Below are positions 12,137 through 44,976 of a stretch of DNA of 64,000 bases, piece after piece (within the stretch, counting starts at the first letter, position 1; each line of letters begins with the position of its first letter). The DNA comes from Candidatus Omnitrophota bacterium (GTDB lineage: Bacteria > Omnitrophota > Gorgyraeia > Zapsychrales > Fredricksoniimonadaceae). Location: NCBI GenBank assembly GCA_015233145.1, contig JADFYI010000004.1:68821-132820 (forward strand), given 5' to 3'. The notes below the pieces were generated by a model. It searched no databases. It was not told the DNA's origin and was given only the letters and a program-made list of their open reading frames with translations. A program made the position numbers and the translations under genes.

Positions 12137-13225
<1,089 letters not shown>

Positions 13226-13335: not shown

Positions 13336-13347
13336 ACAAAAACAAAG

Positions 13348-14799: not shown

Positions 14800-14824
14800 T
14801 ATTTCCTCCATCTATCCGTTTACA

Positions 14825-14952: not shown

Positions 14953-14966
14953 ATCTCATCGGATTC

Positions 14967-25415: not shown

Positions 25416-26270
25416 TTAAATCATATTGCAAAAACGGCATGGAAGCATCCGTGATTTCTTATTCTTACGGTATTCACGCGCCAAGGCCCCGTTATAAATA
25501 TCCAAAAGCGACCGATCGTTGGCATTGCCCAGGATATACTCTCCTTCCATATCCATACAGCAAAGAGCCACAAGCCCATTGGCTAAAACAACCATGTTTT
25601 TTAAACGCTGGCAATGGATATCCTTAAAACCTCTAAAACTAAAAATCCGCGAAATATAATTATATTTATACCCCACCTTGATCTCAGCCCCTGGAAAATT
25701 CTGACGACAAAAAACGCAAAAACTGTCATTATATATTTTATTTCCAACCTTATCTTCTTTACCATGCTCAACGGAAGCAACAATAATATTTTCCGCAAAT
25801 TTACGCTCGCTATTAAGCCTTAACACATTTTTAATATTAGCCACAACCCTCTTGAAATCCAATCCTACTCTCCTTTTATAATCCAAAGGCTCAAAACCAT
25901 TAAGACTAAAATTAATTAAACGAATATTCCTTATCCGGGACAACTTCTCTGCACGCTCTTCATCTAAAAGAAACCCATTGGTGAAAACAACAATCCCTGC
26001 AGCCGGAAGTTCATGATTAATAAGATCAAGCCGATCAAAAATTTTCTTATCAAGAAACATTTCCCCATTTGCAAACGGATGAACATTTTCAGGGTTAATC
26101 TCCTTAAGATCTTTCAGCAGCTTCAAAAAAAGCTCATCCGACATATCGGTCAAACCGCGCTTCATGTTTCGATGATGGCAAAACTCACACTTCGCATTGC
26201 AGCGATTGGTTGTTTCAATCTGTATCTCTAAAGGACGCTCAACCCGTTCAATCCTTTTCTTCCAAAACAT
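25416..26270 (-). CDS. radical SAM protein with a C-terminal SPASM/twitch-like Cys cluster
   Basis: ETTNRCNAKCEFC (CxxxCxxC). C-terminal Cys residues CQRL...LCCMD...PCRFC. The gene looks much more AT-rich than its neighbours. Confidence 0.75.
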   Translation of the reverse strand: MFWKKRIERVERPLEIQIETTNRCNAKCEFCHHRNMKRGLTDMSDELFLKLLKDLKEINPENVHPFANGEMFLDKKIFDRLDLINHELPAAGIVVFTNGFLLDEERAEKLSRIRNIRLINFSLNGFEPLDYKRRVGLDFKRVVANIKNVLRLNSERKFAENIIVASVEHGKEDKVGNKIYNDSFCVFCRQNFPGAEIKVGYKYNYISRIFSFRGFKDIHCQRLKNMVVLANGLVALCCMDMEGEYILGNANDRSLLDIYNGALAREYRKNKKSRMLPCRFCNMI

Positions 26271-30152: not shown

Positions 30153-31931
30153 TTACTGGTTAAAATGATAACTCGCCAGCCGCGAGTACAATTCTGAAGA
30201 ATTTAAAAGCTCCTCGTGAACGCCTTTTTGGACAATTTCACCGTTCTCCAAAACCAGTATGCAGTTAGCATGCCGGATGGTTGACAACCGGTGCGCAATG
30301 ACAATAACTGTCCGGTCTTTCATAAGGTTATCAAGGGCCGCCTGCACAAGATACTCAGACTCCGCATCAAGCGCGGAAGTGGCCTCATCCAAAAGAAGAA
30401 TCTTGGGGTTCTTTAAAATAGCCCTGGCAATGCAAAGCCTCTGCTTCTGCCCTCCGGAAAGTTTAAAACCCCTGTCGCCGATAACGGTATCAAGCCCTTT
30501 CGGCATTTTCTCAATAAATTCAAGGGCGAGCGCCTGGCGCGCGGCATCAAAAATCTCTTCATCCGTGGCGTCAAGCTTGCCGTACTGCAGGTTCGCCCGG
30601 ATCGTCTCATTAAAAAGAATCATGTCCTGTGTCACAAGGCCAATATGACTGCGCAAAGACAACAGCGTCACACCCTTGATGTCCTGGCTGTCAAAAAGGA
30701 TCCTTCCCTTGTCAGGGTCATAAAAACGAAGGATCATGTTAATAATCGTGGTTTTCCCGCATCCCGTCGGCCCCACAAGGGCCGTGGTTTTCCCGATTTC
30801 AAAATCATGGGAAAAATCCTTGATAATCCAGCGCTCTTCATCCTTGTTATAACGGAAGGAAATGTTTTCAAAACAAATGCTTTTCTTAGGTAAGACACAT
30901 TCTTTGGCATCAGGGGCATCAACAATTTTTAGTTTCCAGTCCAAGATAGCGTAAATGCGTTTGGATGACGCCAGGGCCTGCTGAATAATGCCGTACACGG
31001 CTGTTAATTTCTTGATGGGGCGGAAAATGCTGATCAGCGCGGCCACATATACGCCAAAAACGCCGAACGAAATGCTCCCTGACATCACACGCTTTCCGCC
31101 AAGCCAGAGCACCAGAACAAAGGCAATCGCCTGCATGACTTCTGAAGACGGGGAAAGCAAAAGCGCTCTTTTGTTGGCCTTCAAGAACGCGTGATAATAC
31201 CTCAAATTGGCCGTATCAAACCTTGTCATCTCATGGGTCTCACGCGAAAAGGCTTTAACAACTGATACGCCCTGGCTCGCCTCAGCCAAAACTGAATTAA
31301 GGTCGGCCATGGATTCCTGGGAATGGATGGACTGTTTCTTGACGGTTTTTCCGATCACGTGGATCAAAAGCCCGATGAGCGGCAGGGTTGCCAGGATCAC
31401 CAGGGTCATCCGCCAGTCAATGGAAAGCGCCACAACCGCAAAAAATATCGCGAGAAGCGTCTGATAAACAACATCCGTAATGCCATACGATATGGAATGG
31501 CCTAAAAAAGGCACGTCGTGCGTCACGCGCGACATAAGCTCGCCCTGGCGTTTCTGGCTGTAGAAATCATGGGAAAGTTTCTGATAATGCGCAAAAAGAT
31601 CCGAGCGAACGTCGGCAACTGTTTTTTGCGCCACAACGTTCATAAAATACCCCTGCATATAAAAGACAATCCCTTTAAGGATATAAAAGACAGGCGTAAA
31701 ACATATGATCCCGTAAAAAAGGGTCTGACGGTCAATGGTATTCACCCGCCCCGCCAAATCCATGACCCAGGGCGGCATCCCCGATGGAAGGACAATGAGC
31801 TTGTTGGTAAAAATACGGTCCACAATAGGCCCGATCGCGCCAAACTGCCCGCCCTCAAAAAGGGTTGAAAAAAGCATGCAGCCAATACCCAAAAAAAGAT
31901 ACTTCAGGTTGCGCCGCGACAAACTGATCAT
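30153..31931 (-). CDS. ABC exporter, fused permease/ATPase (MsbA/PglK-like)
   Basis: 592 aa. Six hydrophobic segments, then GPTGCGKTT, LSGGQKQR and ILLLDEATS. Confidence 0.85.
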   Translation of the reverse strand: MISLSRRNLKYLFLGIGCMLFSTLFEGGQFGAIGPIVDRIFTNKLIVLPSGMPPWVMDLAGRVNTIDRQTLFYGIICFTPVFYILKGIVFYMQGYFMNVVAQKTVADVRSDLFAHYQKLSHDFYSQKRQGELMSRVTHDVPFLGHSISYGITDVVYQTLLAIFFAVVALSIDWRMTLVILATLPLIGLLIHVIGKTVKKQSIHSQESMADLNSVLAEASQGVSVVKAFSRETHEMTRFDTANLRYYHAFLKANKRALLLSPSSEVMQAIAFVLVLWLGGKRVMSGSISFGVFGVYVAALISIFRPIKKLTAVYGIIQQALASSKRIYAILDWKLKIVDAPDAKECVLPKKSICFENISFRYNKDEERWIIKDFSHDFEIGKTTALVGPTGCGKTTIINMILRFYDPDKGRILFDSQDIKGVTLLSLRSHIGLVTQDMILFNETIRANLQYGKLDATDEEIFDAARQALALEFIEKMPKGLDTVIGDRGFKLSGGQKQRLCIARAILKNPKILLLDEATSALDAESEYLVQAALDNLMKDRTVIVIAHRLSTIRHANCILVLENGEIVQKGVHEELLNSSELYSRLASYHFNQ

Positions 31932-31944
31932 GCGAAAATATTCT

Positions 31945-33123
31945 TTAATAGGAAGCCCCTTTGCTCTTTAAGAATTTTTGAACAACCTCAACCACATAAT
32001 CCAACTGCGACGGCTCAATGTCCTGGTGAATCCCGATATGCGTGCCGTGATTGCTGCAATACTCCGCCTCTGGAAAGTCGCCGAGCTTATACCCCAAAAA
32101 GGCATAGCTCGGACACTGGGTTGGCATGGCATAAAAAAGATTGCGCGAATCCACACCCTGGCTTTCAATGAAGGTCACAAATTCATCTTTTGTAAAATTA
32201 AGGCCTTCACGCAAAATCATGGAAAAAGCGTGCGGCCCGAGTTTTTCGTAAGGCTCTTGTTTCAGCGTAATAAAATATTTATCGAAAAGGCGGAATTTAT
32301 CGATCAGGTACAACATATTCCGACGGCGTTTTGCAAGGATGTCTGCGAAGATTTCAATGTTCCCGAGCCCGACAGCGGCTTCGATTTCATTCATCTTAGC
32401 GGAAAATCCAATGCGTTCAAAGGTAAATTTGCCTGTCATGCCGTGGTTGCGCAAAGACCGAAGGGCATCTGCTGTTTTTTCGCAATTGGTGATAATCATG
32501 CCGCCCTCGATCGTGGTCACGATATGCGCGGCATAAAGGCTGAAACAGGCCGTATCGCCCATCGCGCCGATCTTTTGCCCCTTATACTCTGCGCCGTGCG
32601 CTTCGGCCGCATCTTCAATCACTTTCAAATTGTGCTTTCTGGCAATACTTAAAATTTTATCCATTTCCGCGGGCTTGCCCATAAGGTGGACCGGCATAAT
32701 GGCACGGGTACGCTTTGTGATTTTTTCCTCAATTTTGTCCGGGTCAATATTCAAAGTGTCACGCTTGACGTCCACAAAGACCGGTGTAAGCCCGGCCTGA
32801 AAAACAGCGTTGCCGGTGGCCACAAACGAGAGCGCCGGAATAATGACCTCATCCCCGCGCCTGGCGCCAAAATCATAAAGCGCGGCGCATGCCAAAGCAT
32901 CCGCGTCGGTGCCGCTCGAAACCGCAACCCCGTATTTGACACCAAAGAGAGCCGCGAATTTGTCTTCAAACTCTTTAACGTATTTGCCCTTGGTCACCCA
33001 TTTTGTTTCAAGGGCCTCGTCAATAAGCTTGCGCGCCTTGGGCGTGATGGAAACCGTTCCAAAGGGGACTTTATAGCCTGATTTCCTGAATTCCTGGCCT
33101 GCTGATATTGTCATACGCTTCAC
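31945..33123 (-). CDS. DegT-fold PMP-dependent sugar 3-dehydratase candidate (ColD/E1-like, His replaces the PLP lysine)
   Basis: 392 aa. CFSLYAAHIVTTIEGG aligns with SFHPVK (pseC) and SFYPTK (21286 gene). His200 is codon CAT, the rc of 32524-32526. 4-nt overlap with the hddC-like gene. Confidence 0.55.
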   Translation of the reverse strand: MKRMTISAGQEFRKSGYKVPFGTVSITPKARKLIDEALETKWVTKGKYVKEFEDKFAALFGVKYGVAVSSGTDADALACAALYDFGARRGDEVIIPALSFVATGNAVFQAGLTPVFVDVKRDTLNIDPDKIEEKITKRTRAIMPVHLMGKPAEMDKILSIARKHNLKVIEDAAEAHGAEYKGQKIGAMGDTACFSLYAAHIVTTIEGGMIITNCEKTADALRSLRNHGMTGKFTFERIGFSAKMNEIEAAVGLGNIEIFADILAKRRRNMLYLIDKFRLFDKYFITLKQEPYEKLGPHAFSMILREGLNFTKDEFVTFIESQGVDSRNLFYAMPTQCPSYAFLGYKLGDFPEAEYCSNHGTHIGIHQDIEPSQLDYVVEVVQKFLKSKGASY

Positions 33124-33821
33124 TCAATCATTTCATTTAAATGTTTCTTGGCCCACTCAAATCGTTCGGGTGTTCCGATATCAATAAAAGGGGCATCCAC
33201 CTTATGACAAAAAAACCTATTGCCGATCAGCTTTGGAAAAAAGTCATACTCAATGGAAAATTTTGTGGGCGGCATCATATCAAAAACGCTTTTATTGAAA
33301 CAATAAACGCCGGCGCTGATATACTGCACGTCTTTTGTGACAAACTTTTCCTTAAACGCCGTGATTTCCTCTTTGTCGTTGGTGAGAATTGTCCCGAAAT
33401 CCTTGTTGCCTTCAATGCGCACACCGACCAACGTGGCAAGGGCATTTTTGGCCTGATGCCCACGCAAAAGCTCCTGATAATTGACGGGTGTAAAGCAATC
33501 ACCGTTCAGGCCAAACACGTAAGGTTTCTTGACGAGAGGCGCGGCATTCTTTAATGCGCCGCCGGTCCCCAAAGGCTCACGTTCAATCGAAAGATGCAGT
33601 TCAATATTCTTAAATTTTTCCTTATAATACGCCTCAAACGCCTCGGCCTTATACCCGGCACAAAGGATAATGCGCGCCGCGCCCTGTTTTATGAGGTAGC
33701 GAATCAGGAAGTCCAGGAAAGGCTCACCCTGCACAGAGGCCATCACCTTGGGCGTTTCACCCGTGACAGACCGAAGGCGCGTCCCCAGCCCTCCACACAA
33801 AATTAGAAAATCAGCATCCAT
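33120..33821 (-). CDS. hddC: sugar-1-phosphate nucleotidyltransferase, HddC-like (heptose-1-P guanylyltransferase candidate)
   Basis: LILCGGLGTRLR nucleotidyltransferase signature, 233 aa, adjacent to the GHMP heptose kinase-like gene. Confidence 0.55.
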   Translation of the reverse strand: MDADFLILCGGLGTRLRSVTGETPKVMASVQGEPFLDFLIRYLIKQGAARIILCAGYKAEAFEAYYKEKFKNIELHLSIEREPLGTGGALKNAAPLVKKPYVFGLNGDCFTPVNYQELLRGHQAKNALATLVGVRIEGNKDFGTILTNDKEEITAFKEKFVTKDVQYISAGVYCFNKSVFDMMPPTKFSIEYDFFPKLIGNRFFCHKVDAPFIDIGTPERFEWAKKHLNEMIE

Positions 33822-33826
33822 AAGTT

Positions 33827-34825
33827 TTACGCAACGACTCCGCTGTTAGGTTGATAAAAAATAATCTGGCTCCCCAGGGTTTCAAAATGGAACGGGATTT
33901 CCAAAAGCCCTTTTAACGCGCTTCTGACCAACGGCTTTTTTTCAGGCTCGGCATAAATCAGGATAAACCCGCCGCCGCCAGCGCCTAAAAGTTTTCCGCC
34001 CAAAGCCCCGGCCTTGAGGGCCTTGTCATAAATATCATCAATATAGGATGTCGTGATCTTGTCGGAAAGCGTGCGCTTGATCTGCCAGCTTTCACCAAGG
34101 AGCTTCCCAAAACGCAGGAGATCATTCGCGTTTAAGGCGCTGAGCGCCTGCGTCACCAAATGATACATGGCCGCAAGTTCCTGCTTTTTATTGGGAATAT
34201 TCTGTATTTGATGGACCGCAATCTGCGAGGCCGTACGCGCGAACCCGGTAAAAAAAATCATCATATGGTCTTGAAGCGCGGTTATCCTCTCTTTGGAAAG
34301 CGTGACAGGCCGCACGCCCAGCTGGCCGTCCCTGCCGAATTCAATATAATTCAACCCGCCATACGCGGCCAAAGCCTGGTCCTGGCAGCCGACATTTTCC
34401 TTGATCATGTTTTGTTCAATATGGATCGCTTCGCGAGCCATTTGCTCTTTGGTGGCCATGGTGCCTTTAAGCGCGTAAAGCGAATTCAAAAGGCCCACTG
34501 TAAACGAGGAACTCGAGCCCAGGCCCGCACGGGCCGGCAAATCACCATCGTGATGAATCTCAATGCCCTGGTGGATATTGAGAAACCGCAGAGTTTCACG
34601 CACCGATGGATGGTCAATCTCATCGACATTCTGGACATGCTCCATTTTGGAATAAATAATGCGCGATTTATGGTCAAAAAAAGGAGGAAGATAACGCGCC
34701 GTGATATAGCAATATTTGTCAATCGTTGTGGCCAAAACCGCGCCCGGGTTGTCATGAAACCACTGGGGATAATCGGTTCCTCCGCCAAAAAAAGACACAC
34801 GAAACGGGGTGCGGCTGATAATCAT
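33827..34825 (-). CDS. hddA: GHMP kinase, HddA-like (D-glycero-alpha-D-manno-heptose-7-P kinase candidate)
   Basis: SRTPFRVSFFGGGTDYP and GDLPARAGLGSSSSF (GHMP motif II). Confidence 0.6.
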   Translation of the reverse strand: MIISRTPFRVSFFGGGTDYPQWFHDNPGAVLATTIDKYCYITARYLPPFFDHKSRIIYSKMEHVQNVDEIDHPSVRETLRFLNIHQGIEIHHDGDLPARAGLGSSSSFTVGLLNSLYALKGTMATKEQMAREAIHIEQNMIKENVGCQDQALAAYGGLNYIEFGRDGQLGVRPVTLSKERITALQDHMMIFFTGFARTASQIAVHQIQNIPNKKQELAAMYHLVTQALSALNANDLLRFGKLLGESWQIKRTLSDKITTSYIDDIYDKALKAGALGGKLLGAGGGGFILIYAEPEKKPLVRSALKGLLEIPFHFETLGSQIIFYQPNSGVVA

Positions 34826-36066
34826 ACCTTCTCCCTTATTTTGACCTTAAGCATATCTTGGATCTCATCCACGACAACGCTTCCAAATTTTGAACCCATG
34901 AAAGACAAATACTTTCCATCCGAATAATATTCGTTAAAGGCATTGTCCCGAAACCGCAGCACGTCCAATCCGCTGAGATGCTTTGTCGGCACGGGCTTGA
35001 AACGCGGACTCATTTGTGAAAACTCCTCCCCTGTCTGGGGCATGTCAATCCCGCGGGATTTCATGTCTTCATAAAGCTGGCTTCCGGGATATGCGGTCAC
35101 GCAATAAAAGTTAGAATACTCGCACAAAAGTTCACGGCTCAGGTCAAAGGTGGCGCGCATGGTATCCAAATTGTCATCCCAGAATCCAAACATGTAATTA
35201 CCAATAATATGGATGCCCGCGTCTTTTGTCATCCTGATGACATCACGGATTTTCGCATTATCAAAACGGCCTTTCATAATATCTTTGCGGATATTCTCAT
35301 CACCGGATTCAATGCCATAGGCCAGCCATAAAATACCGGCGGAACGCAGCTTCTTTAAAAGCGCAGCATCAACCGTATCTATCCGCGCGTAGGCCCAAAT
35401 ATTGATCTCGCTCCCCAGTCCGCTTGCTTTTAAAAGCTCTAAAACAGCATGGACGCCCTTGTTATTGATCGCAAAAAGCTCATCCATCATCTTGAAATTG
35501 GTAATCCCCTTGTCAACAAGCCCGCGGACATCATCAAGAAGCAGGCGCGGTTCCCGCTGAGTATAGTCTGACCTGTAAAAATCTTTCACGCAACAAAACT
35601 CACAGGAAAACGGGCACGAAATACTTGAAAAGACAGCGCCGTAAGACTTGTCTTTCCGGCCCCACGAGTGCCAGTTATGCGCGCGATAAGACTTAACCGG
35701 CACCAGGCTCCAGTCCGGCGGGGCCATCTCAACAGGATTAAACACAAGGTGGTTATAAACATCCACCGGAAGCCTTAACGCGGTCACAATAAGATTACGC
35801 AGGTTTTCAGCAGCCTCGGTCTGCTGGATATGAGCCGAAGGATGCGAACCAATGGCCAAAACCACCACACGCTCCGCCGCCAGTTCCTTAAGCCGCACAA
35901 GCAATCCCGCGCCGTCAAGGCCTTCGGCCTCCATATCCACTATTTTTGCGCCTGGAAACTTCTGGGCAAAAAGCACAAGCCAGATCGGCGGCTCAATGGC
36001 GGAAAGATGCACCACCCGGCCGTACTGCTTTCTTTTCTCATTAGGTTTTACCAAAACAACAGACAT
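34822..36066 (-). CDS. B12-binding (class B) radical SAM enzyme
   Basis: The N-terminal about 110 aa resemble a cobalamin-binding Rossmann-like domain. Followed by SSISCPFSCEFCCV (CxxxCxxC), 414 aa in total. Confidence 0.7.
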   Translation of the reverse strand: MSVVLVKPNEKRKQYGRVVHLSAIEPPIWLVLFAQKFPGAKIVDMEAEGLDGAGLLVRLKELAAERVVVLAIGSHPSAHIQQTEAAENLRNLIVTALRLPVDVYNHLVFNPVEMAPPDWSLVPVKSYRAHNWHSWGRKDKSYGAVFSSISCPFSCEFCCVKDFYRSDYTQREPRLLLDDVRGLVDKGITNFKMMDELFAINNKGVHAVLELLKASGLGSEINIWAYARIDTVDAALLKKLRSAGILWLAYGIESGDENIRKDIMKGRFDNAKIRDVIRMTKDAGIHIIGNYMFGFWDDNLDTMRATFDLSRELLCEYSNFYCVTAYPGSQLYEDMKSRGIDMPQTGEEFSQMSPRFKPVPTKHLSGLDVLRFRDNAFNEYYSDGKYLSFMGSKFGSVVVDEIQDMLKVKIREKV

Positions 36067-36072
36067 AATATT

Positions 36073-37005
36073 TTAAACATTAGCGTACTGATTGCGTTTT
36101 AAAATTTGATAAGTCTTTACCAATTCCCTGATTCCAGAAGATAACGACATGTCCGGCTTAAACCCTGTCTTTTCAATTTTGTCATTGGAAACGATATAAT
36201 CACGCTTATCCGGGTCTTCGCCGACAGCCGCTTCCACGAAATAAAAATCCGGGATCTGCTTTTTGATCTCTTCGCACAGTTCCTTTTTGCTCAAATTGGC
36301 ATCGCTTAACCCCACGTTATAAGGCTCGTTTTTCATCTTTTCAAAATTGTTCAAAGAATGGATAAAGGCCTTGGCCACATCGCGCGTGTGGATAAAATTA
36401 CGCTTGAAATGCGCCTCAAAAAGGATCACAAAACGGTCATACACCGCGCGGTAAACAAAATCATTGACCAACAAATCAAGCCTCATGCGCGGGCTTGCGC
36501 CAAAAGCCGTGGCCAGGCGCAGGGTAATGCCGTGTCCGCTGTCCAATACAATTTTCTCCGCGTCACACTTGAGCCTCCCATAGACAGAAATCGGCCTTAA
36601 CGGCGTTTCCTCTGTGCAAAATTTCCCCTTTTCACCGACACCGTATCCGCTGTTGGTCGTCGGAAAAATAACCGGCTGGCTCTTTGAGGAAAAATCGACA
36701 GCCATTTTGATGGCATCCACAAGGATCGTTTGCGCGGCAATAGGGTCTTTGGCGCATAAAGGAGCACCCGTAAGACAGGCCAAAGGGAAAAGCGCATCAG
36801 ACTCTTTAACGAGCTTTTCAACAATTTTCTTATCCCTGGCATCACCCCGCACAATCGTCAGTTTCGGGTTGTGGCAAATATCCAAAAGCGGCGTCTGGTT
36901 ATACATAAAATTATCCAAAACCGCAACCTCATGCCCGGCGTCCAAAAGGCGAGGCACCATCACAGACCCCAAATAACCGGCGCCGCCTGTCACTAAAATC
37001 TTCAT
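36073..37005 (-). CDS. NAD-dependent extended SDR epimerase/dehydratase/reductase
   Basis: ILVTGGAGYLGS and YGRLK (YxxxK). Confidence 0.75.
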   Translation of the reverse strand: MKILVTGGAGYLGSVMVPRLLDAGHEVAVLDNFMYNQTPLLDICHNPKLTIVRGDARDKKIVEKLVKESDALFPLACLTGAPLCAKDPIAAQTILVDAIKMAVDFSSKSQPVIFPTTNSGYGVGEKGKFCTEETPLRPISVYGRLKCDAEKIVLDSGHGITLRLATAFGASPRMRLDLLVNDFVYRAVYDRFVILFEAHFKRNFIHTRDVAKAFIHSLNNFEKMKNEPYNVGLSDANLSKKELCEEIKKQIPDFYFVEAAVGEDPDKRDYIVSNDKIEKTGFKPDMSLSSGIRELVKTYQILKRNQYANV

Positions 37006-37022
37006 CTCCCACTCCTTTTAAG

Positions 37023-37997
37023 TTAAGGCAAATTAAATAAACTTCTCTTCACAACAAATGTTTGCTCCTCAAGCCCTGCTTCACAGGTGGCTGAAATCCC
37101 CTCGCGAAGGCCGGTCGGGGCATTCCATCCCAGGGATTTAATGCGGGAACTGTCCAAAAGCTTGCGCATGACGCCATCAGGCCTTGTTTTATCCCAGGTT
37201 ATTTGTCCCCGATATCCGACAATGGAGGCAATCACTGCAGCCAATTCCCCGATTTCCACATCAATGCCGGTGCCGATATTAATAAGCTCCGGGGAATGAT
37301 ACCTCTCCAGAAGAAAAAGGCAGGCCTCCGTAAGGTCATCGCCGAAAATAAATTCCCGCCGCGGCTTGCCGCTGCCCCACAACTCAACATGGCGCGTCCC
37401 CATTTTGGCAGCCTTGCGGAGTTTGCCGATCAAAGCGCCCATGACATGGGCTTCTTCAAGGTCGCGCTCAGGGGCCGGGCCATAAACTGTCGCTGGTACC
37501 GCTGAAATAGCAGGAAACCCGTACTGCTTGAAGTACGCCTGGCACATCACCACTCCCGCCGCCTTAGCCATGGAATACGGCTCGCTTATTTTCTCCATGG
37601 TCCCTGTTAAAAAATATTCCTCTTTGATGGGCTGCGGGCAATCCTGGGGATAAACGCAGGAGGCGGCCAAAAATAACAGTTTTTTAACTCCCACACGGTA
37701 AGAAAAATCAATCACATTATTTTGCGCCTGAAGGTTTTCAAACATAAACTCAGCCCCGTGAGCCTGGTTGGCCGCAATGCCGCCGGCACGGACTGAAGAA
37801 AGGATCACAAACTCCGGGCGCTCCCTGTCCATAAACGCACGCAGGGCCTTGCCGTCCAAAGGATTTAAACTGAGCTCCGTCGAGGAAAGCACGGATGAAA
37901 ATCCCCGACGGTAAAGCCCGCGGACTAAAGACATTTCAATCGCGTCGGCATGGCCGACAATAAGTATTTTCGACTTTTTGACGATTCCTGCGCGCAT
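37023..37997 (-). CDS. GDP-L-fucose synthase (Fcl)/ColC-like SDR with an atypical dinucleotide motif
   Basis: Collinear with E. coli Fcl as recalled: AASCVYP, YSMAKAAG, WGSGKPRREF and DKTRPDGVMRKLLD. The N-terminal GxxGxxG position reads GHADAIE. Confidence 0.6.
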   Translation of the reverse strand: MRAGIVKKSKILIVGHADAIEMSLVRGLYRRGFSSVLSSTELSLNPLDGKALRAFMDRERPEFVILSSVRAGGIAANQAHGAEFMFENLQAQNNVIDFSYRVGVKKLLFLAASCVYPQDCPQPIKEEYFLTGTMEKISEPYSMAKAAGVVMCQAYFKQYGFPAISAVPATVYGPAPERDLEEAHVMGALIGKLRKAAKMGTRHVELWGSGKPRREFIFGDDLTEACLFLLERYHSPELINIGTGIDVEIGELAAVIASIVGYRGQITWDKTRPDGVMRKLLDSSRIKSLGWNAPTGLREGISATCEAGLEEQTFVVKRSLFNLP

Positions 37998-37999
37998 AA

Positions 38000-38536
38000 T
38001 TACTTCTCGTTATAATAATTGCCGTCTTCAATCAGAAGCGTGGCACGGTTATCTTCCCGCTCAAAAGCGCGCTGATAGGCTGGAAAAATATCCTGCGGCT
38101 CGGAAAGTTCAACAACCTCAATCCAGTCAAAAAGCTTACGGAAAGACTCTGCAAAATTCCCCACATGCTGATGCCCGGGATGCACTGGTTTATAAGGCCC
38201 TGTGGCCACGCGGATAATAACTTTAGGAGTGACCCGCCCCTGGCTCATGGCCGGGAATTTGTCGAGCATGTTGGACATGTCTCCCGTTGCCAGCAATAAA
38301 AAATTCTGGCGCGGATAAACAGAGACCGGAACATAGCCGGCCAGCGCCAGGCCTATGGAAAACTGCATCTGGAAACTTTCATTGACCGGGAATTCAACCG
38401 CACGGTCTTTGGGCACGTCCCGCAGGGTCTGGTACATAAATGTGCCCGGCACCGCTGCGGTCTGGCCGACAAAAATCGTTTTGGGCTGTGTGGCCAGCCA
38501 TTCCATGGTCCGTTTAAGCTCGTCGAAATATTTCAT
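38000..38536 (-). CDS. ThDP-enzyme beta-like subunit (Pyr domain only, E1-beta-like)
   Basis: 178 aa. EFPVNESFQMQFSIGLALAG contains the conserved ThDP-activating Glu context. Lacks the C-terminal transketolase domain of E1-beta. Confidence 0.6.
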   Translation of the reverse strand: MKYFDELKRTMEWLATQPKTIFVGQTAAVPGTFMYQTLRDVPKDRAVEFPVNESFQMQFSIGLALAGYVPVSVYPRQNFLLLATGDMSNMLDKFPAMSQGRVTPKVIIRVATGPYKPVHPGHQHVGNFAESFRKLFDWIEVVELSEPQDIFPAYQRAFEREDNRATLLIEDGNYYNEK

Positions 38537-38537
38537 A

Positions 38538-39161
38538 TTAAAATTTTATGAGTTTTCCAAGCCCGGAATGCGGCCAGCCGTTCTTGTATTGAAAATAAAC
38601 AATTTTTTTCTCAAACCGCGTCCCCTTAAACCAGGGTTCTTCAGAGCCCCATGTTTCACGGGTCTGGGTCATAACACTGAGTCCGTTGTCAGACACGATA
38701 AATTTTGCCGGTAAATCAAAATTAACAGCATACTTGACCGCCTCATGAAAAATTCCGGTCTCCGACGACATGTCACCGCAAAAAAGAAACACGCGCCCCT
38801 TTTTGCCCTCATGCTTAAGCGCCCAGGCGACACCCGTGGCAACACCCATGAGGCTCCCGACAATCCCTGAGCAGAAAATCTTGTGTTCTGGAAAACAAAG
38901 CGCAATGCTGCGTCCGTCCATGATCGCGGCTAACACTTCTTCCCGCGCAACGCCTTTGAGCAGGCAAAGCTCATGCGAATCCCAAAAACCAAAAAGATAA
39001 TCGTCAGCACCGATATTGTATTCTTGAAAAATACGAATAAGCTCTTCTTCACGCCCGGAACGAAGATGCACCGGCGCTTTGATGAGCCCCTGGGCAAAAA
39101 TTCCGGCGACTTCATTCTCAAAGCCTTCCAGGTCTTTTTTGGTTAACGCTGTCATGGCCAT
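38538..39161 (-). CDS. ThDP-enzyme alpha-like subunit (PP domain, E1-alpha-like, minimal)
   Basis: 207 aa. GDMSSETGIFHEAVKYAVNFDLPAKFIVSDNG fits the GDG-X(25-30)-N ThDP/Mg motif (GDM-X26-DN). Confidence 0.6.
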   Translation of the reverse strand: MAMTALTKKDLEGFENEVAGIFAQGLIKAPVHLRSGREEELIRIFQEYNIGADDYLFGFWDSHELCLLKGVAREEVLAAIMDGRSIALCFPEHKIFCSGIVGSLMGVATGVAWALKHEGKKGRVFLFCGDMSSETGIFHEAVKYAVNFDLPAKFIVSDNGLSVMTQTRETWGSEEPWFKGTRFEKKIVYFQYKNGWPHSGLGKLIKF

Positions 39162-40102
39162 TATAAATTCTCTTTAAACCACTCAATTGTCTTGGCAAGG
39201 CCTTCCCGTAACGAAACTTTTGGCTCCCAGCCTAACTTGGCCCTGGCTATGGAAATATCAGGTTTACGCTGTTTAGGATCATCCTGAGGAAACGGCTCGT
39301 AAACAAACTTGCTCCTGCTGCCCGTCAGTTCCAGCACAATTTTGGCAAATTCAATAATGGTAAATTCCCCGGGATTGCCGATATTCACAGGGCCACTCAG
39401 GTTCGAAAACATGAGCCGCAAAATCCCTTTGGCCTCATCGTCAACATAACAAAAGGAGCGTGTCTGCTTTCCATCGCCATAAATCGTCAACGGGAGCCCC
39501 TTAAGCGCCTGATAAATAAAATTCGGCACCACACGCCCGTCATGAAGATTCATGCGGGGGCCGTAAGTATTAAAAATACGCACGACTTTGGTGTCCACCT
39601 TAAATGTACGCCGATACGCAAATGTTACTGCTTCGGCATAACGCTTGGCCTCATCATAAACACTGCGCGGGCCAATGGGATTAACGTTGCCCCAATAGGT
39701 TTCTTTTTGGGGATGCTCCTTAGGGTCGCCGTAGACTTCTGAAGTCGATGTTAAAAGAAACACGGCTTTTTTTGCTTTCGCGATTTCAAGCATGTGATGG
39801 GTACCTTGCGAGCCCACCAAAAGCGTTTCCACAGGATGGTTCAGGTAATCCACCGGGCTCGCCGGAGACGCGCAATGCATCACATAATCAATCTTTCCGG
39901 GAATCTTAAAAGGCCTTGAGACATCCTGTTTGATCAGCGTAAAATTCTTGTCTTTCAAAAGATGCGCGATATTGGTTTTTTTGCCTGTAATAAAATTATC
40001 AACGCAAAAAATCCTGTGCCCCTGCTCCATAAGCTGGTCGCACATGTGGCTTGGTAAAAATCCTGCCCCGCCGCTCATGAGCGTTACTTTCTTTCTTGTC
40101 AT
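39161..40102 (-). CDS. UDP-glucuronate decarboxylase (UXS-like SDR)
   Basis: 313 aa. [23 protein letters not shown] and YDEAKR. The third Gly of the Rossmann motif is Pro. Confidence 0.75.
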
Positions 40103-40114
40103 GCGATCCTCTTT

Positions 40115-41416
40115 TTATAACTTGATAATTTTCTCTGAAACCGTTTTATGATAAATATTCTTAAGATCAAAAATCTGCCTCGCGTTCTTTAAAACAAGCT
40201 TATAGTCCACGTTCGTGTGATCGACAGCAATGACAACGCAATCCTGATCCGCAATGTTTTTGGGGGTCAACGGTGCGCCTTCCATCTCCAGCCCTTCCAG
40301 ATGAAGAAACGGCACCAAAGGATCATAAAACGAAACCACAGCCCCGCGTCTTTTCAAGATATCAATCAGCCTTAACGACGGCGACTTTCGGAGGTCCTTA
40401 ACGTCTTTTTTGTATGTCACGCCCATAATGAGCACCCTGGCGCCTTTAAGGATTTTACCGCGGGCGCTGAGCATATCTTTCACTCGAGACACAACGTATT
40501 CCGGCATGGCGGAATTGATATCCGCGGAAAGTTTGATAAAACGCGACGCACACCCCTTTTCCTTGGCCTTCCAGTAAAGATAAATAGGGTCTTCCGGGAT
40601 GCAATGGCCGCCCACGCCAAGCCCGGGGTAAAAGGGCATAAATCCGAAAGGCTTTGTTTTGGCTGCGTCGATAACCTCCCAGACATCAATGTCAAACTTA
40701 TGGCACATCATGGCCGCTTCATTGATCCAGCCAATATTCACAAGCCTGAAGGTATTTTCAAGAAGTTTGCACATCTCAGCCGCTCGGGGCGAAGAAACAA
40801 CGTGGATGTCCTTGATAATTTTCCCATAAAGGGCTTTGGCCAGGATACTGCACGCCGGGGTGACACCGCCGACAACCTTGGGGATCTGTGTCACGGTATG
40901 CGTGGCATTGCCCGGGTCAATCCTTTCGGGGGAAAATGCCAGATAAAAATCCCTGCCGACCTTGAGTCCCCCTCTTTCAAGCTCGGGCGCGATCAACTCC
41001 TCAGTCGTGCCAGGGTAGGTTGTGCTCTCGAGAATAACAAGGGTGCCTTTGGAAAGATTTTCCGCAACCGAACGGACCGCGGAAAGAATAAATGAAATAT
41101 CCGGAGTATACTTTTTTTTGATCGGAGTCGGGACGCAAATAATCACAGCCCTGCAGTTTTTGATACAGCCGAAATCCGTTGTCGGTAAAAAAGCCCTGTG
41201 GGATACAGGCTCGACGATTTCAGCGTCTGTCACATCAGTAATATAACTCGTTCCGGCCAGAAGCCTGTCAATGCGGTCGGTGTTGTTGTCGATTCCGTAA
41301 ACACGGAAACCTTTATTGGCAAACCCCAACGCCAGAGGAAGGCCGACATAGCCAAGCCCGATGACGGCGACAGATATTTCGTTTTTTTTGATTTTTGAAA
41401 AAAGTTTCTTATACAT
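40115..41416 (-). CDS. nucleotide-sugar dehydrogenase (UDP-GlcNAc/ManNAc 6-dehydrogenase-like)
   Basis: 433 aa. VIGLGYVGLPLA and GVGGHCIPEDP (catalytic Cys). Confidence 0.75.
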   Translation of the reverse strand: MYKKLFSKIKKNEISVAVIGLGYVGLPLALGFANKGFRVYGIDNNTDRIDRLLAGTSYITDVTDAEIVEPVSHRAFLPTTDFGCIKNCRAVIICVPTPIKKKYTPDISFILSAVRSVAENLSKGTLVILESTTYPGTTEELIAPELERGGLKVGRDFYLAFSPERIDPGNATHTVTQIPKVVGGVTPACSILAKALYGKIIKDIHVVSSPRAAEMCKLLENTFRLVNIGWINEAAMMCHKFDIDVWEVIDAAKTKPFGFMPFYPGLGVGGHCIPEDPIYLYWKAKEKGCASRFIKLSADINSAMPEYVVSRVKDMLSARGKILKGARVLIMGVTYKKDVKDLRKSPSLRLIDILKRRGAVVSFYDPLVPFLHLEGLEMEGAPLTPKNIADQDCVVIAVDHTNVDYKLVLKNARQIFDLKNIYHKTVSEKIIKL

Positions 41417-42731
41417 GCCCGCGGCCTATCCCGTAATATTCAAATCCCAGATCACCCAATGCCTTCATGTCGAGGAAATTACGGCCGTCAAAAATCACGG
41501 CCTGCCGCATGGCATCGCGAACCCTGGCCCAGTCAGCCGCCTTAAACTCTTCCCACTCCGTCAAAAGAAGAAGGCAATCCGCGCCTTTCGCGGCGGCATA
41601 AGGGTCAGAACAAAACTTAATCCCTTTGAGCATTTTTTTAGCATTAGGCACGGCCTGCGGGTCATAGGCCTGAATGCAGGCGCCTTCATTTTGAAGGGCT
41701 TCGATGATCGTAACCGACGCGGCACTGCGCATGTCATCCGTGTTCGACTTAAACGCCAATCCCCAGACTGCAATGGTTTTATCTTTGAGGATCCACAATT
41801 TATCTTCCACAAGGCGGATAAAAGATTGCTTTTGCTCTTCATTCACCTCACGCACGCTTTTTAACAATTTAAAGTCATAGCCGCTCTTCTCAGCCAGGCG
41901 GACAAAGGCATCCACATCCTTAGGAAAACAGCTTCCGCCGTAACCGACACCCGCGTTCAAAAAAGCCCGGCCGATGCGCTTGTCATAGCCCATGCCCTCG
42001 GCCACCTGCTCGACATCCGCGCCCACCCGCTCACAAATCTGGGAAACCGCATTGATGAATGAAATTTTTGTCGCTAAAAAAGAATTCGACGCGTGCTTGA
42101 TGATCTCGGCGGTCGCCACATTCGTCACCAGCATCTTGGCCTTCAAAGGCTTGTAAATCTCACGCAAAAGCCTTTCCGCACGCTTTGATTCAACACCGAT
42201 AACAATGCGGTCTGGATTCATGAAATCCTTGATCGCCGACCCTTCCCGAAGAAATTCAGGGTTAGAGGCAACATCGAATTCAAGCGTTATCTTGTTCCCG
42301 TTTTTAAACTTATTGGGAAGATTGAGCTTAACCGTGCGTTCAATACGATTTCCGGTCTGGGCAGGGACCGTGGACTTTTCCACCAGGAGTTTATACGAAT
42401 CCATGTTGCGCGCAATTTCCCGGGTCACATTTTCAATGTACGTGAGGTCGGCATCGCCGTTCTTTTTCGACGGAGTCCCCACCGCGATAAAAATAACAGA
42501 AGCTTTCTTCGATGATTCTGCGATAGAGCTTGAAAAAGTAATTCTTCCGGACTTGCGGTATTTCTCCAGAAGCTCACCTAAGCCTGGCTCATAAATAGGA
42601 ATCCCGCCGGCTTTAAGAACCTTGATCTTCTCCTCGTTATTATCCACACAAATAACGTTGTGGCCGATGTGTGCCAGGCATACCCCTGTCACAAGCCCGA
42701 CGTATCCGGACCCGATGATAGCTATATCCAT
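41409..42731 (-). CDS. ugd: UDP-glucose 6-dehydrogenase
   Basis: ORF trimmed to ATG 42731 (MDIAIIGSGYVGLVTG, AGGA Shine-Dalgarno upstream). GYGGSCFPKD catalytic Cys. Confidence 0.85.
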   Translation of the reverse strand: MDIAIIGSGYVGLVTGVCLAHIGHNVICVDNNEEKIKVLKAGGIPIYEPGLGELLEKYRKSGRITFSSSIAESSKKASVIFIAVGTPSKKNGDADLTYIENVTREIARNMDSYKLLVEKSTVPAQTGNRIERTVKLNLPNKFKNGNKITLEFDVASNPEFLREGSAIKDFMNPDRIVIGVESKRAERLLREIYKPLKAKMLVTNVATAEIIKHASNSFLATKISFINAVSQICERVGADVEQVAEGMGYDKRIGRAFLNAGVGYGGSCFPKDVDAFVRLAEKSGYDFKLLKSVREVNEEQKQSFIRLVEDKLWILKDKTIAVWGLAFKSNTDDMRSAASVTIIEALQNEGACIQAYDPQAVPNAKKMLKGIKFCSDPYAAAKGADCLLLLTEWEEFKAADWARVRDAMRQAVIFDGRNFLDMKALGDLGFEYYGIGRGHV

Positions 42732-42750
42732 TTTTCTTCCTTCAGTCTTT

Positions 42751-44976
42751 TTAAGGCTGCGGTTGCGAGCCAACTTCTCTCTTGCTGAAACTTGTGCTTC
42801 CATTAAATTTTACGGATGGGAACGCCTTGATACGGAAAATAAACCAGAATTCTGTGCCTGATTTTTCCGGTTCTTTCTTGTTGTTGATCGCGAATTCAAC
42901 TTCCCAGGAATGGAGGTCGCGCACAAAAGAATACTGCTGTTCCTGCCAATGGCCCGTATCCACATTCCAGCGGTCGTAAACGACTGTCCGCCATTTGGGA
43001 TTGAATTTGTACGACACCTGTGTTGTGACAAGGTCGTCATCCTTGTGCGCATACCGGCGGCCGATATCAAATTCCCATTTTTTGTTGTCTTTCAAATACA
43101 AGTCAAAATTGGCGGTCTGCAGATGCCTGGTGTCATTATTGTAATCCATGTCATTATGAAACGTGACATACTGGTTCGGGTAAAGTTCATTCGTCCACTT
43201 CATATCCCCCCAGCTGCCAGGCGTTGGGTTGTCTTTCAGCCGAAACTCGGTTGTGAGAGACGAACGCGCAAGATCAACGCTTTTCCCGTCACGCTTGGTC
43301 TGAAGCGTGTTGTCGAGCCCCAGGGCAAAACGGTCTATGGTATCGCGGGCGTCCATAGAGTCAAAACCATAAAGTTTCTCAGACCCGAGCGTTGGGTGAT
43401 GCTGGTACAGATAGCCCACCGTCGGCGTTATGACATGGCGGAGCTGGTTCACCTCAATGCCATACTTATTAAAAGTGACGTCATACACGCGGTAAAACTT
43501 TGTGCTCACATCCATCCCGGTACGGAAAATCCCGCGCACGGAATCATTGTGCGAGCTGTCCAATGTGTTGGAATAATACGTTTGTTCGGTCCCGATATAA
43601 GGCCGCATCTCCAGGAAAGAAACTTTAAAAGGACGCGAAAGTTCATTGTCCGTATCAATGCGAATCGTATGATGCGTGTTGTCTGAAACCGAAGGATCTT
43701 TTTGCCTTAAATTCGAAATCGTATTGTTGCTTTTGACATAAAAACCCGTGTCAGAAATCGGCTGGTTTGTCAGGCTGTAATTAAATTCCGGTAAGCGCTC
43801 GACCGGAGCCTCAAAATTGTTAACACGCAGGTCAGCCCGCAAGCTTGCCGTGGCATTGGCCATCGAATGAGTCAAAAGGGCATACGTAGGAGGATTCTGG
43901 TCCTGCTGGTATTCTCTCCTGAAATACTCCTTAATAAAATCTTTATCCGACACTTTGTAATACTGGGAAATAAAACTTGTCTGCGGGTCAATGTCCCATT
44001 TATGGCGCCATTCAATGCGATAGCGCTCACCCGTTGTCGGCGTTGCATTGGTCTGGCCGATGGTGTTGCCGATCAGCTGATGCTCATTAATATAATATGT
44101 TTTGACAAGACCATGTCCCCCGTTTTCCCAGGCATTATAATCGGCATCCACGCCATAACCGACGCCTTTGCGGCCGTAAAGGTCCAGATGATACGTGGTA
44201 TCAATCCAATCCGTCACCATCATATGCGTGCTCATAAGAACATACGCGCCTAAATCTTTTTGATAACCGGGAACAACCCTGAGATGCGGGCGGTCATCAT
44301 TCAAATACTGGACATACTTGGGCATATACATGACCGGCATACCCCCCAAATACATGACAGAGTTGTGCGCAATCGCCCGGTCATACGGATAAACCTCGAT
44401 TTTGCGCGACTTAATGCGGTATTCCGGATTATCGTAATCGCTCGTGGAAATCCACCCGTCGGAAAGGACATAATAATCATCATGGAATTTTGTAATGGAC
44501 GCAGCCTTGCCGAAATAAGGGTTGGCCATGATCCGGGCATTGGTAAATTCGCCGCGCTTGGTTTCAAAATTATAAAACGCCTTATCCGCCCAGACCGTGC
44601 CTTTGGGCGAAACAAGGACAATATTGCCAATGGCATGGGCTTCTTTGCGGTCGCGATAAAATTCAAGCTTGTCACAAAAAAGTGTTGAGTCGTTTTGCTT
44701 TAAGACAACATTGCCGCTGGCCACAAACTTGGATTCTTCCGCCTTAAATTCAATGGAGTCTCCGGTTAATTCCACAGGGGCATTCTTGTCATAGGGGGCA
44801 TTTTTGTCATGCGGGACGTCTTTGGCCGGGGCTTTATCATCTAAAGGGGATGATGATGGCGCTGCCTGCGCCGAATTTTCTTGTGCCTGTGCCCCGGAAG
44901 CAGAAAAAATCAGTGCTGCCAAAGCCACACACCAGAAAACAACAAAGGCCCTCATCACTTGTTTGGTATCTTTCAT
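42751..44976 (-). CDS. lptD: LPS-assembly outer-membrane protein LptD
   Basis: 741 aa. Signal peptide ending AQAQ, an OstA-like N-terminal domain (ELTGDSIEFK...ASGNVVL...A.GNIVL) and a large beta-barrel-type C-terminus ending in an aromatic-rich strand. Confidence 0.8.
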   Translation of the reverse strand: MKDTKQVMRAFVVFWCVALAALIFSASGAQAQENSAQAAPSSSPLDDKAPAKDVPHDKNAPYDKNAPVELTGDSIEFKAEESKFVASGNVVLKQNDSTLFCDKLEFYRDRKEAHAIGNIVLVSPKGTVWADKAFYNFETKRGEFTNARIMANPYFGKAASITKFHDDYYVLSDGWISTSDYDNPEYRIKSRKIEVYPYDRAIAHNSVMYLGGMPVMYMPKYVQYLNDDRPHLRVVPGYQKDLGAYVLMSTHMMVTDWIDTTYHLDLYGRKGVGYGVDADYNAWENGGHGLVKTYYINEHQLIGNTIGQTNATPTTGERYRIEWRHKWDIDPQTSFISQYYKVSDKDFIKEYFRREYQQDQNPPTYALLTHSMANATASLRADLRVNNFEAPVERLPEFNYSLTNQPISDTGFYVKSNNTISNLRQKDPSVSDNTHHTIRIDTDNELSRPFKVSFLEMRPYIGTEQTYYSNTLDSSHNDSVRGIFRTGMDVSTKFYRVYDVTFNKYGIEVNQLRHVITPTVGYLYQHHPTLGSEKLYGFDSMDARDTIDRFALGLDNTLQTKRDGKSVDLARSSLTTEFRLKDNPTPGSWGDMKWTNELYPNQYVTFHNDMDYNNDTRHLQTANFDLYLKDNKKWEFDIGRRYAHKDDDLVTTQVSYKFNPKWRTVVYDRWNVDTGHWQEQQYSFVRDLHSWEVEFAINNKKEPEKSGTEFWFIFRIKAFPSVKFNGSTSFSKREVGSQPQP

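Follow-up and report, generated by a model that had tools for sequence, protein, structure and literature searches.

What sugar would a bacterium make with an enzyme set that joins the activation of a heptose to a radical S-adenosylmethionine (SAM) enzyme and a split thiamine diphosphate (ThDP) enzyme? The question is raised by a gene module at positions 31945-39161 of a 64,000-nucleotide stretch of DNA from a Candidatus Omnitrophota bacterium (assembly GCA_015233145.1, contig JADFYI010000004.1, positions 68,821 to 132,820); we call this whole stretch the window. A first-pass annotation had proposed that the module makes a deoxygenated heptose, activated by guanosine diphosphate (GDP), that carries a C-methyl group and/or a two-carbon branch. 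Our follow-up analysis supports the heptose front end and the 3-dehydratase of that proposal, and does not support the methylase. We now read the module as a GDP-heptose tailoring pathway that would supply an unusual sugar, a deoxy heptose branched or extended by two carbons, to a glycan of the lipopolysaccharide (LPS) type, a reading that we hold with about even confidence.

Eight genes conserved as a unit

The first-pass annotation had described an array of eight contiguous genes and had named the fold family of each. All eight open reading frames (ORFs) were found at the coordinates it gave, packed on the minus strand, and Pfam matches bear out the families.

38538-39161, minus strand: ThDP-binding PP-domain small subunit (ThDP-alpha), 207 amino acids; E1_dh/TPP_enzyme_C
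38000-38536, minus strand: pyrimidine-binding Pyr-domain small subunit (ThDP-beta), 178 amino acids; Transket_pyr
37023-37997, minus strand: Fcl-like short-chain dehydrogenase/reductase (SDR), 324 amino acids; Epimerase/GDP_Man_Dehyd
36073-37005, minus strand: putative Cj1427-type GDP-heptose C4 dehydrogenase (SDR310), dependent on nicotinamide adenine dinucleotide (NAD), 310 amino acids; Epimerase/GDP_Man_Dehyd
34822-36066, minus strand: AprD4-like radical SAM protein, short form with a truncated N-terminal Rossmann domain, 414 amino acids; Radical_SAM
33827-34825, minus strand: HddA-like GHMP sugar-phosphate kinase, 332 amino acids; GHMP_kinases_N and GHMP_kinases_C
33120-33821, minus strand: HddC-like sugar-1-phosphate guanylyltransferase, 233 amino acids; NTP_transferase
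31945-33123, minus strand: His-variant DegT-fold enzyme, presumed sugar 3-dehydratase dependent on pyridoxamine phosphate (PMP), 392 amino acids; DegT_DnrJ_EryC1

Distances between adjacent genes of the module range from a 4-nucleotide overlap to a 17-nucleotide gap. The tight spacing carries on past the module, to a UXS-like gene upstream (1-nucleotide overlap) and an ABC exporter downstream (13-nucleotide gap); a scan for promoters and terminators found no more of them than chance would give and revealed no limits of an operon. The identical gene set, in the same order, occurs in 13 other Omnitrophota loci with protein identities of 53-87%, which argues that the module is a conserved unit and not a chance grouping. 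The radical SAM protein and ThDP-alpha of the window each match a database entry at 100% identity, and the DNA belongs to a metagenome-assembled genome of Candidatus Omnitrophica.

Scans seeded with the radical SAM protein returned 183 relatives in species-representative genomes and 191 in viral contigs. From these, 166 loci were fetched, searched by tblastn with all module proteins and subjected to unbiased clustering of their neighbouring ORFs. They are the basis of the comparisons across loci below.

Proposed activation of the sugar

Throughout, the cutoffs of NCBIfam 'equivalog' models served as thresholds of family membership, and no protein of the module reaches one. The kinase scores 143 bits on the HddA model (NF049969; cutoff 600), with fucokinase next at 83, and its top solved relatives are the heptose kinases 3k85, 4usk and 4n3o. 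The guanylyltransferase is nearly tied between the HddC model (NF049965; 157.5 bits versus a cutoff of 300) and a model of mannose-1-phosphate guanylyltransferase (154 bits), and its best solved relative is Yersinia HddC, 6jq8. The candidate phosphatase lies elsewhere in the window.

19915-20514, minus strand: GmhB-like HAD-IIIA phosphatase, 11.4 kb from the module

The first-pass designation of this gene as GmhB-type fits its score on the GmhB equivalog model (144 bits versus a cutoff of 178) and its passing of the HAD-IIIA and histidinol-phosphatase domain models. Homology makes it probably the phosphatase of the pathway, and in two other loci homologs lie inside the module itself.

The isomerase GmhA and the 4,6-dehydratase Gmd had been reported as missing from the window, and tblastn likewise found no homolog of either in it. 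In six related loci, GmhA (40-46% identity) adjoins the orthologous genes, and in four of these the kinase orthologs (55-62% identity) stand beside both GmhA and an HAD phosphatase. One locus (L040) runs GmhA, HAD phosphatase, Fcl-like SDR, SDR, GHMP kinase, N- and C-terminal halves of a transketolase-like protein, radical SAM and His-type DegT, and in a locus of the SAR11 clade a GmhB-like HAD domain is fused to the nucleotidyltransferase. The presence of GmhA inside six related loci and the fusion of transferase and GmhB support a heptose origin of the sugar. With HddA and HddC as nearest relatives, and with GmhA and GmhB beside orthologous genes, the proposed GDP-heptose-type front end thus gains support. 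The nearest characterised relatives of SDR310, the Fcl-like protein, the nucleotidyltransferase and the DegT protein all act on GDP-sugars.

It could still be that the kinase, phosphatase and transferase act on another sugar phosphate: an octose, as in lincosamide biosynthesis, a hexose or something else. Consistent with this, the cutoffs of HddA, HddC and GmhB are all missed, the transferase scores equally on the mannose-1-phosphate model, and the tailoring part of the module is found with Gmd in some viruses. We nevertheless consider a substrate other than heptose very unlikely, given that SDR310 is 57% identical to the GDP-heptose-specific Cj1427, that GmhA adjoins orthologous kinases in six loci and that a GT9 heptosyltransferase-like gene lies in the same array.

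Proposed oxidation, dehydration and reduction

Judged by homology, the strongest single clue to the pathway is SDR310. It aligns to PDB entry 6vo6 without gaps over 308 residues at 57% identity (E = 2.7e-121), and the link from 6vo6 to Cj1427c is a published primer (PMC3546167): it encodes RAFKMMKV, an exact match to residues 299-306 of the chain. Cj1427 is a GDP-heptose C4 dehydrogenase with tightly bound NADH (the reduced form of NAD) that is recycled by alpha-ketoglutarate (PMC10680097). The first-pass label of an extended SDR was therefore right as to the fold, and can be refined to a close homolog of Cj1427. With a C4 dehydrogenase of this type present, no Gmd-type 4,6-dehydratase is needed, and because the 4-keto group would come from this enzyme, the 6-hydroxyl group is expected to stay.

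The DegT protein matches DegT_DnrJ_EryC1 at 347 bits. Its His200 aligns to the lysine of GDP-perosamine synthase that binds pyridoxal phosphate (PLP), 'SLYAAHIVTTIEGG' versus 'FSFFGNKIITTGEGG'. The synthase is also its nearest solved relative, at 240 bits, whereas ColD and E1, the latter from yersiniose biosynthesis, score only about 170; these scores point to a His variant of independent origin from ColD and E1. A histidine occupies the PLP-lysine position in 93 of the 103 DegT homologs that neighbour the radical SAM gene across loci, and these homologs fall in two separate sequence lineages. That it is kept in both argues that the dehydratase role is under selection, which strengthens the earlier assignment of a 3-dehydratase. 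The first-pass analogy with Gmd-ColD-ColC chemistry holds for the ColD-type 3-dehydration; the source of the 4-keto group is instead Cj1427-type, so that Cj1427-ColD-type would be the better description.

These two enzyme types have been combined in vitro: Cj1427 and a Campylobacter jejuni C3-dehydratase yield GDP-D-glycero-3-deoxy-4-keto-heptose, and the authors called these 3-deoxy heptoses novel (PMC10680097). Cj1427 requires alpha-ketoglutarate, and the C3-dehydratase generates alpha-ketoglutarate from glutamate (PMC10680097). By analogy, alpha-ketoglutarate from the dehydratase could be used by the Cj1427-type enzyme to turn its bound NADH back into NAD, the two enzymes feeding each other, and such a cosubstrate loop may explain why the DegT (31945-33123) and SDR310 (36073-37005) genes travel together.

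The remaining SDR has GDP-fucose synthases as its best solved relatives (234-242 bits). It scores 326.5 bits on the GDP-L-fucose synthase model, whose cutoff is 500, and retains Ser113, Cys114, Tyr141 and Lys145. In an alignment to a fragment of the Escherichia coli enzyme, which we treat as a lead only, its Ala175 corresponds to E. coli His179, and histidine is rare at this position among the module orthologs. The low score and, by the same alignment, an incomplete Cys109/His179 pair for epimerisation count against membership among the GDP-L-fucose synthases. It is probably a 4-reductase with or without epimerase activity and, if the His179 equivalent is indeed absent, perhaps solely a reductase.

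A minimal split ThDP enzyme

The two smallest proteins of the module resemble parts of familiar ThDP enzymes. ThDP-alpha matches Pfam E1_dh at 47 bits together with TPP_enzyme_C, and ThDP-beta matches Transket_pyr at 29 bits and lacks a C-terminal E1-beta or transketolase domain. Together they carry the general hallmarks of a ThDP enzyme, a GDG-type Mg-ThDP motif and an activating glutamate. In the cofactor motif of ThDP-alpha (G129-D130-M131...D158-N159), three positions (G129, M131 and N159) do not vary, and the two aspartates D130 and D158 are conserved or close to it. For ThDP-beta, 46 distinct homologs all keep Glu53, the residue expected to activate the cofactor. The ThDP-alpha family is compact, with 59 clusters at E <= 1e-30 among 1.84 billion representatives. 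Fused alpha-beta forms of about 400-550 amino acids exist (phrog_34187 and six further proteins), which speaks for a single enzyme composed of the two small proteins. We propose that the minimal split PP/Pyr enzyme defines a new enzyme subfamily.

A genuine pyruvate or acetoin dehydrogenase E1 was considered and rejected on subunit size, low scores and missing partners. ThDP-alpha scores 62.8 bits on the equivalog model of the pyruvate dehydrogenase E1-alpha subunit (cutoff 393.85) and ThDP-beta 26.7 on that of E1-beta (cutoff 321), each subunit is a single domain, and none of the annotated ORFs of the window holds a lipoyl, 2-oxoacid dehydrogenase or pyridine-nucleotide-disulfide oxidoreductase domain, as E2 and E3 partners would. 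The first-pass view of a split ThDP enzyme distinct from E1 is thereby upheld.

The same step may have been solved twice. Among the 166 radical SAM loci, the small pair occurs in 81 and a 271-residue N-terminal half of a split transketolase in 44, and in no locus do the two occur together. The 271-residue family (Transketolase_N, 120 bits) and a 320-residue family (Transket_pyr and Transketolase_C) are the halves of a split transketolase-like enzyme. That loci have one or the other split form, never both, argues that a ThDP enzyme is integral to the pathway, and either pair seems able to stand in for the other at this step. There is precedent for the chemistry that we envisage, in that the E1-like pairs AviB1/AviB2 and Pau11/Pau12 have been proposed to add two-carbon branches to 4-ketosugars (PMC4753412).

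A scan seeded with ThDP-alpha gave 488 viral matches, and 59 loci had enough flanking sequence to show the genes that accompany it. ThDP-beta is present in all 59, always directly beside ThDP-alpha, SDR310 in 56, the radical SAM in 48 and DegT in 41; the Fcl-like SDR (24), an RmlC-type gene (23), Gmd (16) and the kinase (14) are less frequent. These associations bear on a second alternative, in which the ThDP enzyme works upstream on sugar phosphates in the manner of transketolase or DXS, building or supplying a ketose phosphate for the kinase, so that no branching of a nucleotide sugar takes place. Such a role would suit the replacement of the small pair by a split transketolase-like enzyme in 44-59 loci, the lack of GmhA in the window, and a SAR11 locus that combines a cupin resembling a sugar-phosphate isomerase with an additional, larger ThDP pair. 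The tightest partners of ThDP-alpha, however, are SDR310 and the radical SAM, not the kinase; the pair is moreover kept in viral loci where Gmd is present and the kinase is missing, and sedoheptulose 7-phosphate is already supplied by central metabolism. We therefore think an upstream role improbable, and continue with a ThDP enzyme that acts on the nucleotide sugar.

An AprD4-like radical SAM enzyme

The radical SAM protein has the CxxxCxxC motif (C151, C155, C158) and matches PF04055 at 56.7 bits. The first-pass annotation had taken it for a B12-dependent methylase, a role that its features do not support. There is no Pfam match to the B12-binding domain (PF02310) in the protein of the window or in 120 close homologs. 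Homologs of about 505 residues from the same cassette, meaning the genes that recur around this radical SAM, do pass the B12-binding model (38.8 and 36.6 bits versus 32.1), and the 414-residue protein is some 75-90 residues shorter than these within the B12-type domain. Cassettes of the same types house both short and long forms, so that their shared function is probably independent of an intact B12 domain. AprD4 is the best solved sequence match of both forms (59 bits for the protein of the window) and the top fold match in Foldseek, with a template-modelling (TM) score of 0.69-0.71 and a predicted local distance difference test (pLDDT) value of 94 for the model, although the score of 66.5 bits on the AprD4 model (NF033070; cutoff 500) falls far below membership. 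AprD4 itself catalyses the radical dehydration of a 1,2-diol on a sugar, and is not known to use cobalamin despite its B12-like domain.

The first-pass reading, a cobalamin-dependent class B C-methyltransferase acting on an unactivated carbon of the GDP-deoxyheptose or of its two-carbon branch and leaving the remaining pathway unchanged, is a third alternative. It draws on the long homologs that pass the B12-binding model, on Foldseek matches to the B12 methylases MgmA, TsrM, CysS and TokK (E 1e-16 to 1e-9, ranked below AprD4) and on NCBIfam matches to several B12 radical SAM methylases at 30-55 bits. The protein of the window, by contrast, has a shortened domain without a B12 match and yet shares its cassette with the long form, and its top match by sequence and by fold is the cobalamin-independent AprD4. 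We regard methylation as unlikely, if less so than the other alternatives. The comparison of sequence and predicted fold favours a non-methylating chemistry, and the AprD4-like radical SAM with a shortened B12-type domain would define another new enzyme subfamily.

A widespread and modular cassette

The main addition to the first-pass annotation is that the cassette is widespread and modular, and that it is also carried by T4-like phages. In the fetched loci, tblastn placed the radical SAM alongside a Cj1427-like SDR (42-87% identity), the kinase and the DegT protein in Planctomycetota, Desulfobacterota, Elusimicrobia, Dehalococcoidales, Spirochaetota/Leptospiraceae, Margulisiibacteriota and Alphaproteobacteria, as well as in a single-cell genome of Pelagibacteraceae (SAR11), in DPANN archaea and in dozens of viral contigs. 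Clustering of the neighbouring ORFs found the radical SAM family in 162 loci, the SDR in 106, DegT in 88, the kinase in 82, ThDP-alpha in 81, the 320-residue family in 59, ThDP-beta in 58 and the 271-residue family in 44. The combination had been put forward as undescribed. We, too, found no characterised pathway with this combination of enzymes in our literature searches; the combination itself is not unique to the window and recurs across phyla and phages.

All carriers among the best 80 of the 183 genome matches are metagenome-assembled or single-amplified genomes, with no cultured carrier, and none of the best 120 ThDP-alpha homologs has a name that points to one. No homolog of the radical SAM was found in cultured and deposited phages. 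Contigs labelled 'Bacteriophage sp.' from faeces, with kinases 45-49% identical to that of the window, were set aside as not relevant, as they hold only the kinase and transferase.

One of the viral contigs, L156, is a T4-like phage with the Gp23 capsid protein, UvsW, a gp46/47-like nuclease, a late sigma factor and a peptide deformylase. Among these core genes, at 9989-15720, the radical SAM, ThDP-alpha, ThDP-beta, kinase, His-type DegT and Cj1427-like SDR form one block, and ten further T4-like phage contigs (L119-L123, L127, L132, L149, L157 and L163) carry the same block. No nucleotidyltransferase was detected in the block of these contigs. A different arrangement is seen in viral contig L091 (6975-21431), in which SDR, radical SAM and ThDP genes stand beside a colitose-like trio of Gmd, Fcl-like SDR and His-type DegT, with glycosyltransferases and a methyltransferase and without a kinase. 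A survey of pelagimyophages noted 'cassettes related to radical SAM proteins' together with LPS-related auxiliary genes, and assigned no function (PMC7029224).

Further variants were seen. Five phage-like loci (L002-L006; for example 10001-18488 of L004), recognisable by Thy1, GIY-YIG, HNH, NUMOD3 and Laminin_G domains, have the short radical SAM and the small ThDP genes in the company of NeuB, a cytidylyltransferase of the cytidine monophosphate (CMP) type, a class-III aminotransferase and methyltransferases, with no kinase, DegT or SDR; L005 has four additional radical SAM genes in a row. In the SAR11 locus (L086 11559-20441; Pelagibacteraceae single-amplified genome AG-414-A03), the small ThDP pair, 67-70% identical to viral copies, is joined by a larger E1_dh/Transket_pyr pair of 279 and 305 residues. 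This locus also encodes a DJ-1/PfpI protein, a cupin like the C terminus of mannose-6-phosphate isomerase, an RmlC-type epimerase and the fused transferase-GmhB.

A proposed pathway

The proposed pathway has six steps, of which the first three are supported by homology and context; the last three we infer, with no fixed order for the fourth and fifth. First, the HddA-like kinase, the GmhB-like phosphatase and the HddC-like guanylyltransferase would convert a phosphate of D-glycero-D-manno-heptose to GDP-heptose, with GmhA encoded outside the window. Second, the Cj1427-type dehydrogenase would oxidise C4, with the 6-hydroxyl group retained. Third, the His-variant DegT enzyme would take off the 3-hydroxyl group in a ColD-type, PMP-dependent reaction to give GDP-3-deoxy-4-keto-heptose. 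Fourth, in the manner of YerE and AviB1/AviB2, the ThDP enzyme may form a carbon-carbon bond: an acyl anion of two carbons, for which pyruvate is the probable donor, would be joined either to the ketone at C4 or to a carbonyl that the radical SAM has produced. Fifth, the AprD4-like radical SAM may carry out a radical dehydration or rearrangement, probably without cobalamin. Finally, the Fcl-like SDR may reduce the leftover ketone.

We put forward a bolder proposal tentatively, with rather less than even confidence: that GDP-3-deoxy-4-keto-heptose is the shared substrate of the radical SAM and the minimal split ThDP enzyme, which together turn it into a new class of higher-carbon or C-branched sugar, and that the block has spread horizontally among more than ten phyla and has reached T4-like phages that infect SAR11-type hosts, in which it would serve to rewrite the surface glycan of the host during infection. 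Here the radical SAM would create or rearrange a carbonyl and the ThDP enzyme would add two carbons to it, and the portable block would comprise four to six genes.

Several points weigh against the pathway as we have drawn it. As all equivalog scores lie under their cutoffs, the exact substrates are not proven. The window is without GmhA, and a sugar other than heptose is conceivable, given that homologs of the LmbP/K/O type act on an octose in its activation. In some viral contigs Gmd accompanies the block of SDR310, radical SAM and ThDP genes and the kinase is missing, which makes a GDP-hexose route possible and means that heptose may not be the sole substrate. Where the ThDP enzyme is transketolase-like, it could act upstream on sugar phosphates. 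Identity between the radical SAM and AprD4 amounts to only 17-18%, and the long homologs of the radical SAM exceed the B12-binding cutoff (38.8 versus 32.1), which keeps a methylase role in play.

Comparison with known systems

The closest known relatives of the early steps are the capsular GDP-heptose pathways of C. jejuni (PMC10680097). They share with the module the HddA/GmhB/HddC logic of activation, a Cj1427-type C4 dehydrogenase (57% identity), a His-type PLP/PMP 3-dehydratase and an Fcl-family reductase (Cj1428-type C4-reductases; the HS:5 C3-dehydratase), and GDP-D-glycero-3-deoxy-4-keto-heptose, the intermediate that we predict, has been made in vitro by these two enzyme types (PMC10680097). 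They have neither a radical SAM nor a ThDP enzyme, however, and their native 3-dehydratase follows a 4,6-dehydratase rather than Cj1427. The 3-dehydratase of the window, moreover, comes from a perosamine-synthase-like lineage, and its kinase and transferase are only about 30% identical to those of C. jejuni.

The later steps recall yersiniose A, made by E1/E3, YerE and YerF from a 4-ketosugar by His-type, PMP-dependent removal of the 3-hydroxyl group, attachment of an acyl branch at C4 by a ThDP enzyme, and reduction (PMC9306805). ErwE and MyGE are the counterparts for longer branches (PMC9306805). A known 3-deoxy C-branched higher sugar of the erwiniose or caryophyllose type was rejected as the product of the module, because such sugars are explained by YerE-type enzymes acting on hexoses activated by cytidine diphosphate (CDP) with long keto-acid donors (PMC9306805). 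YerE also differs in being a single-chain ThDP flavoprotein that acts on a CDP-3,6-dideoxyhexose (PMC4753412). The module has instead a split PP/Pyr pair of the E1/transketolase lineage, probably uses GDP, probably a heptose, and has the radical SAM in addition. YerE belongs to the acetolactate-synthase family.

AviB1/AviB2 of avilamycin and Pau11/Pau12 of paulomycin are likewise two-subunit, E1-like ThDP enzymes, with a proposed C-4 acetyl branch from pyruvate (PMC4753412). They are actinomycete antibiotic enzymes whose activity is itself only a proposal, and they were compared with the module by description only. Their subunits are full-size and E1-like, whereas those of the module are single-domain proteins of 207 and 178 residues. 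Apramycin C3' deoxygenation by AprD4 and AprD3 resembles the module in its sugar-ring substrate, its partner reductase and the N-terminal B12-like domain of AprD4; it differs in acting on a pseudodisaccharide rather than a nucleotide sugar, in having no ThDP enzyme and in the low identity, already noted, of AprD4 to the radical SAM of the window. The GDP-colitose route (Gmd, ColD and ColC), finally, also pairs a His-variant DegT 3-dehydratase with a final Fcl-like enzyme on a GDP-4-ketosugar; the window differs in being without Gmd, in the expected retention of the 6-hydroxyl group and in the added radical SAM and ThDP pair.

Surroundings of the module

The vicinity has the character of an LPS locus, with LptD, a GT9 glycosyltransferase, an MsbA-like exporter and many glycosyltransferases, which are also found downstream of the module, after the exporter. 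Three features of these surroundings are listed here.

39161-42803, minus strand: a UXS-like SDR and two nucleotide-sugar dehydrogenases, conserved upstream neighbours
30153-31931, minus strand: MsbA-like ABC exporter, with a transmembrane domain followed by an ABC ATPase in its translation
22383-23465, minus strand: GT9 heptosyltransferase-like glycosyltransferase; Pfam Glyco_transf_9, 86 bits

The two dehydrogenases score 435 and 479 bits on an NCBIfam NDP-sugar (nucleoside diphosphate sugar) dehydrogenase model, with a TuaD-type match of 541 bits versus a cutoff of 700. The order of the UXS-like and dehydrogenase genes is the same in five other loci (L001, L007, L012, L015 and L045), and they probably form a separate branch for sugars activated by uridine diphosphate (UDP). 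The exporter follows the DegT gene directly in 11 Omnitrophota-type loci (63-80% identity), and its ortholog in L001 matches ABC_membrane and ABC_tran. The GT9 gene falls just short of the heptosyltransferase II model (131.3 bits versus a cutoff of 134.6) and is, by this similarity, a candidate user of the heptose donor.

Elsewhere, the window holds a second sugar module at 777-8596 on the minus strand, which encodes a xylose-isomerase-like TIM barrel, a CMP-type cytidylyltransferase, an aldo/keto reductase, a class-III aminotransferase, a DegT aminotransferase, a PseB/CapD-type dehydratase and a 634-residue ABC protein, and which looks like a CMP-activated pathway of the nonulosonic-acid kind. 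The ORF of a papain-family C1 peptidase (8515-9318) overlaps the end of the ABC ORF (6692-8596) by about 80 nucleotides; one of these two ORFs may have been given a wrong start codon. Within the glycosyltransferase array lies a separate radical SAM of 284 residues with a SPASM domain (25416-26270, minus strand), and a 1411-residue ORF at 51681-55916 on the minus strand has no Pfam match.

Significance

If the steps that we infer are right, the module represents a new route for the tailoring of nucleotide sugars. Because its early steps (Cj1427 with a C3-dehydratase) and the synthesis of their substrate have been published (PMC10680097), the pathway is directly testable. The cassette is abundant in uncultured bacteria, in DPANN archaea and in T4-like phages of aquatic systems, for which a single subunit gave the 488 viral matches. 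From this abundance, its product may be a common but unseen surface sugar, and one that may affect the recognition between phages and their hosts.

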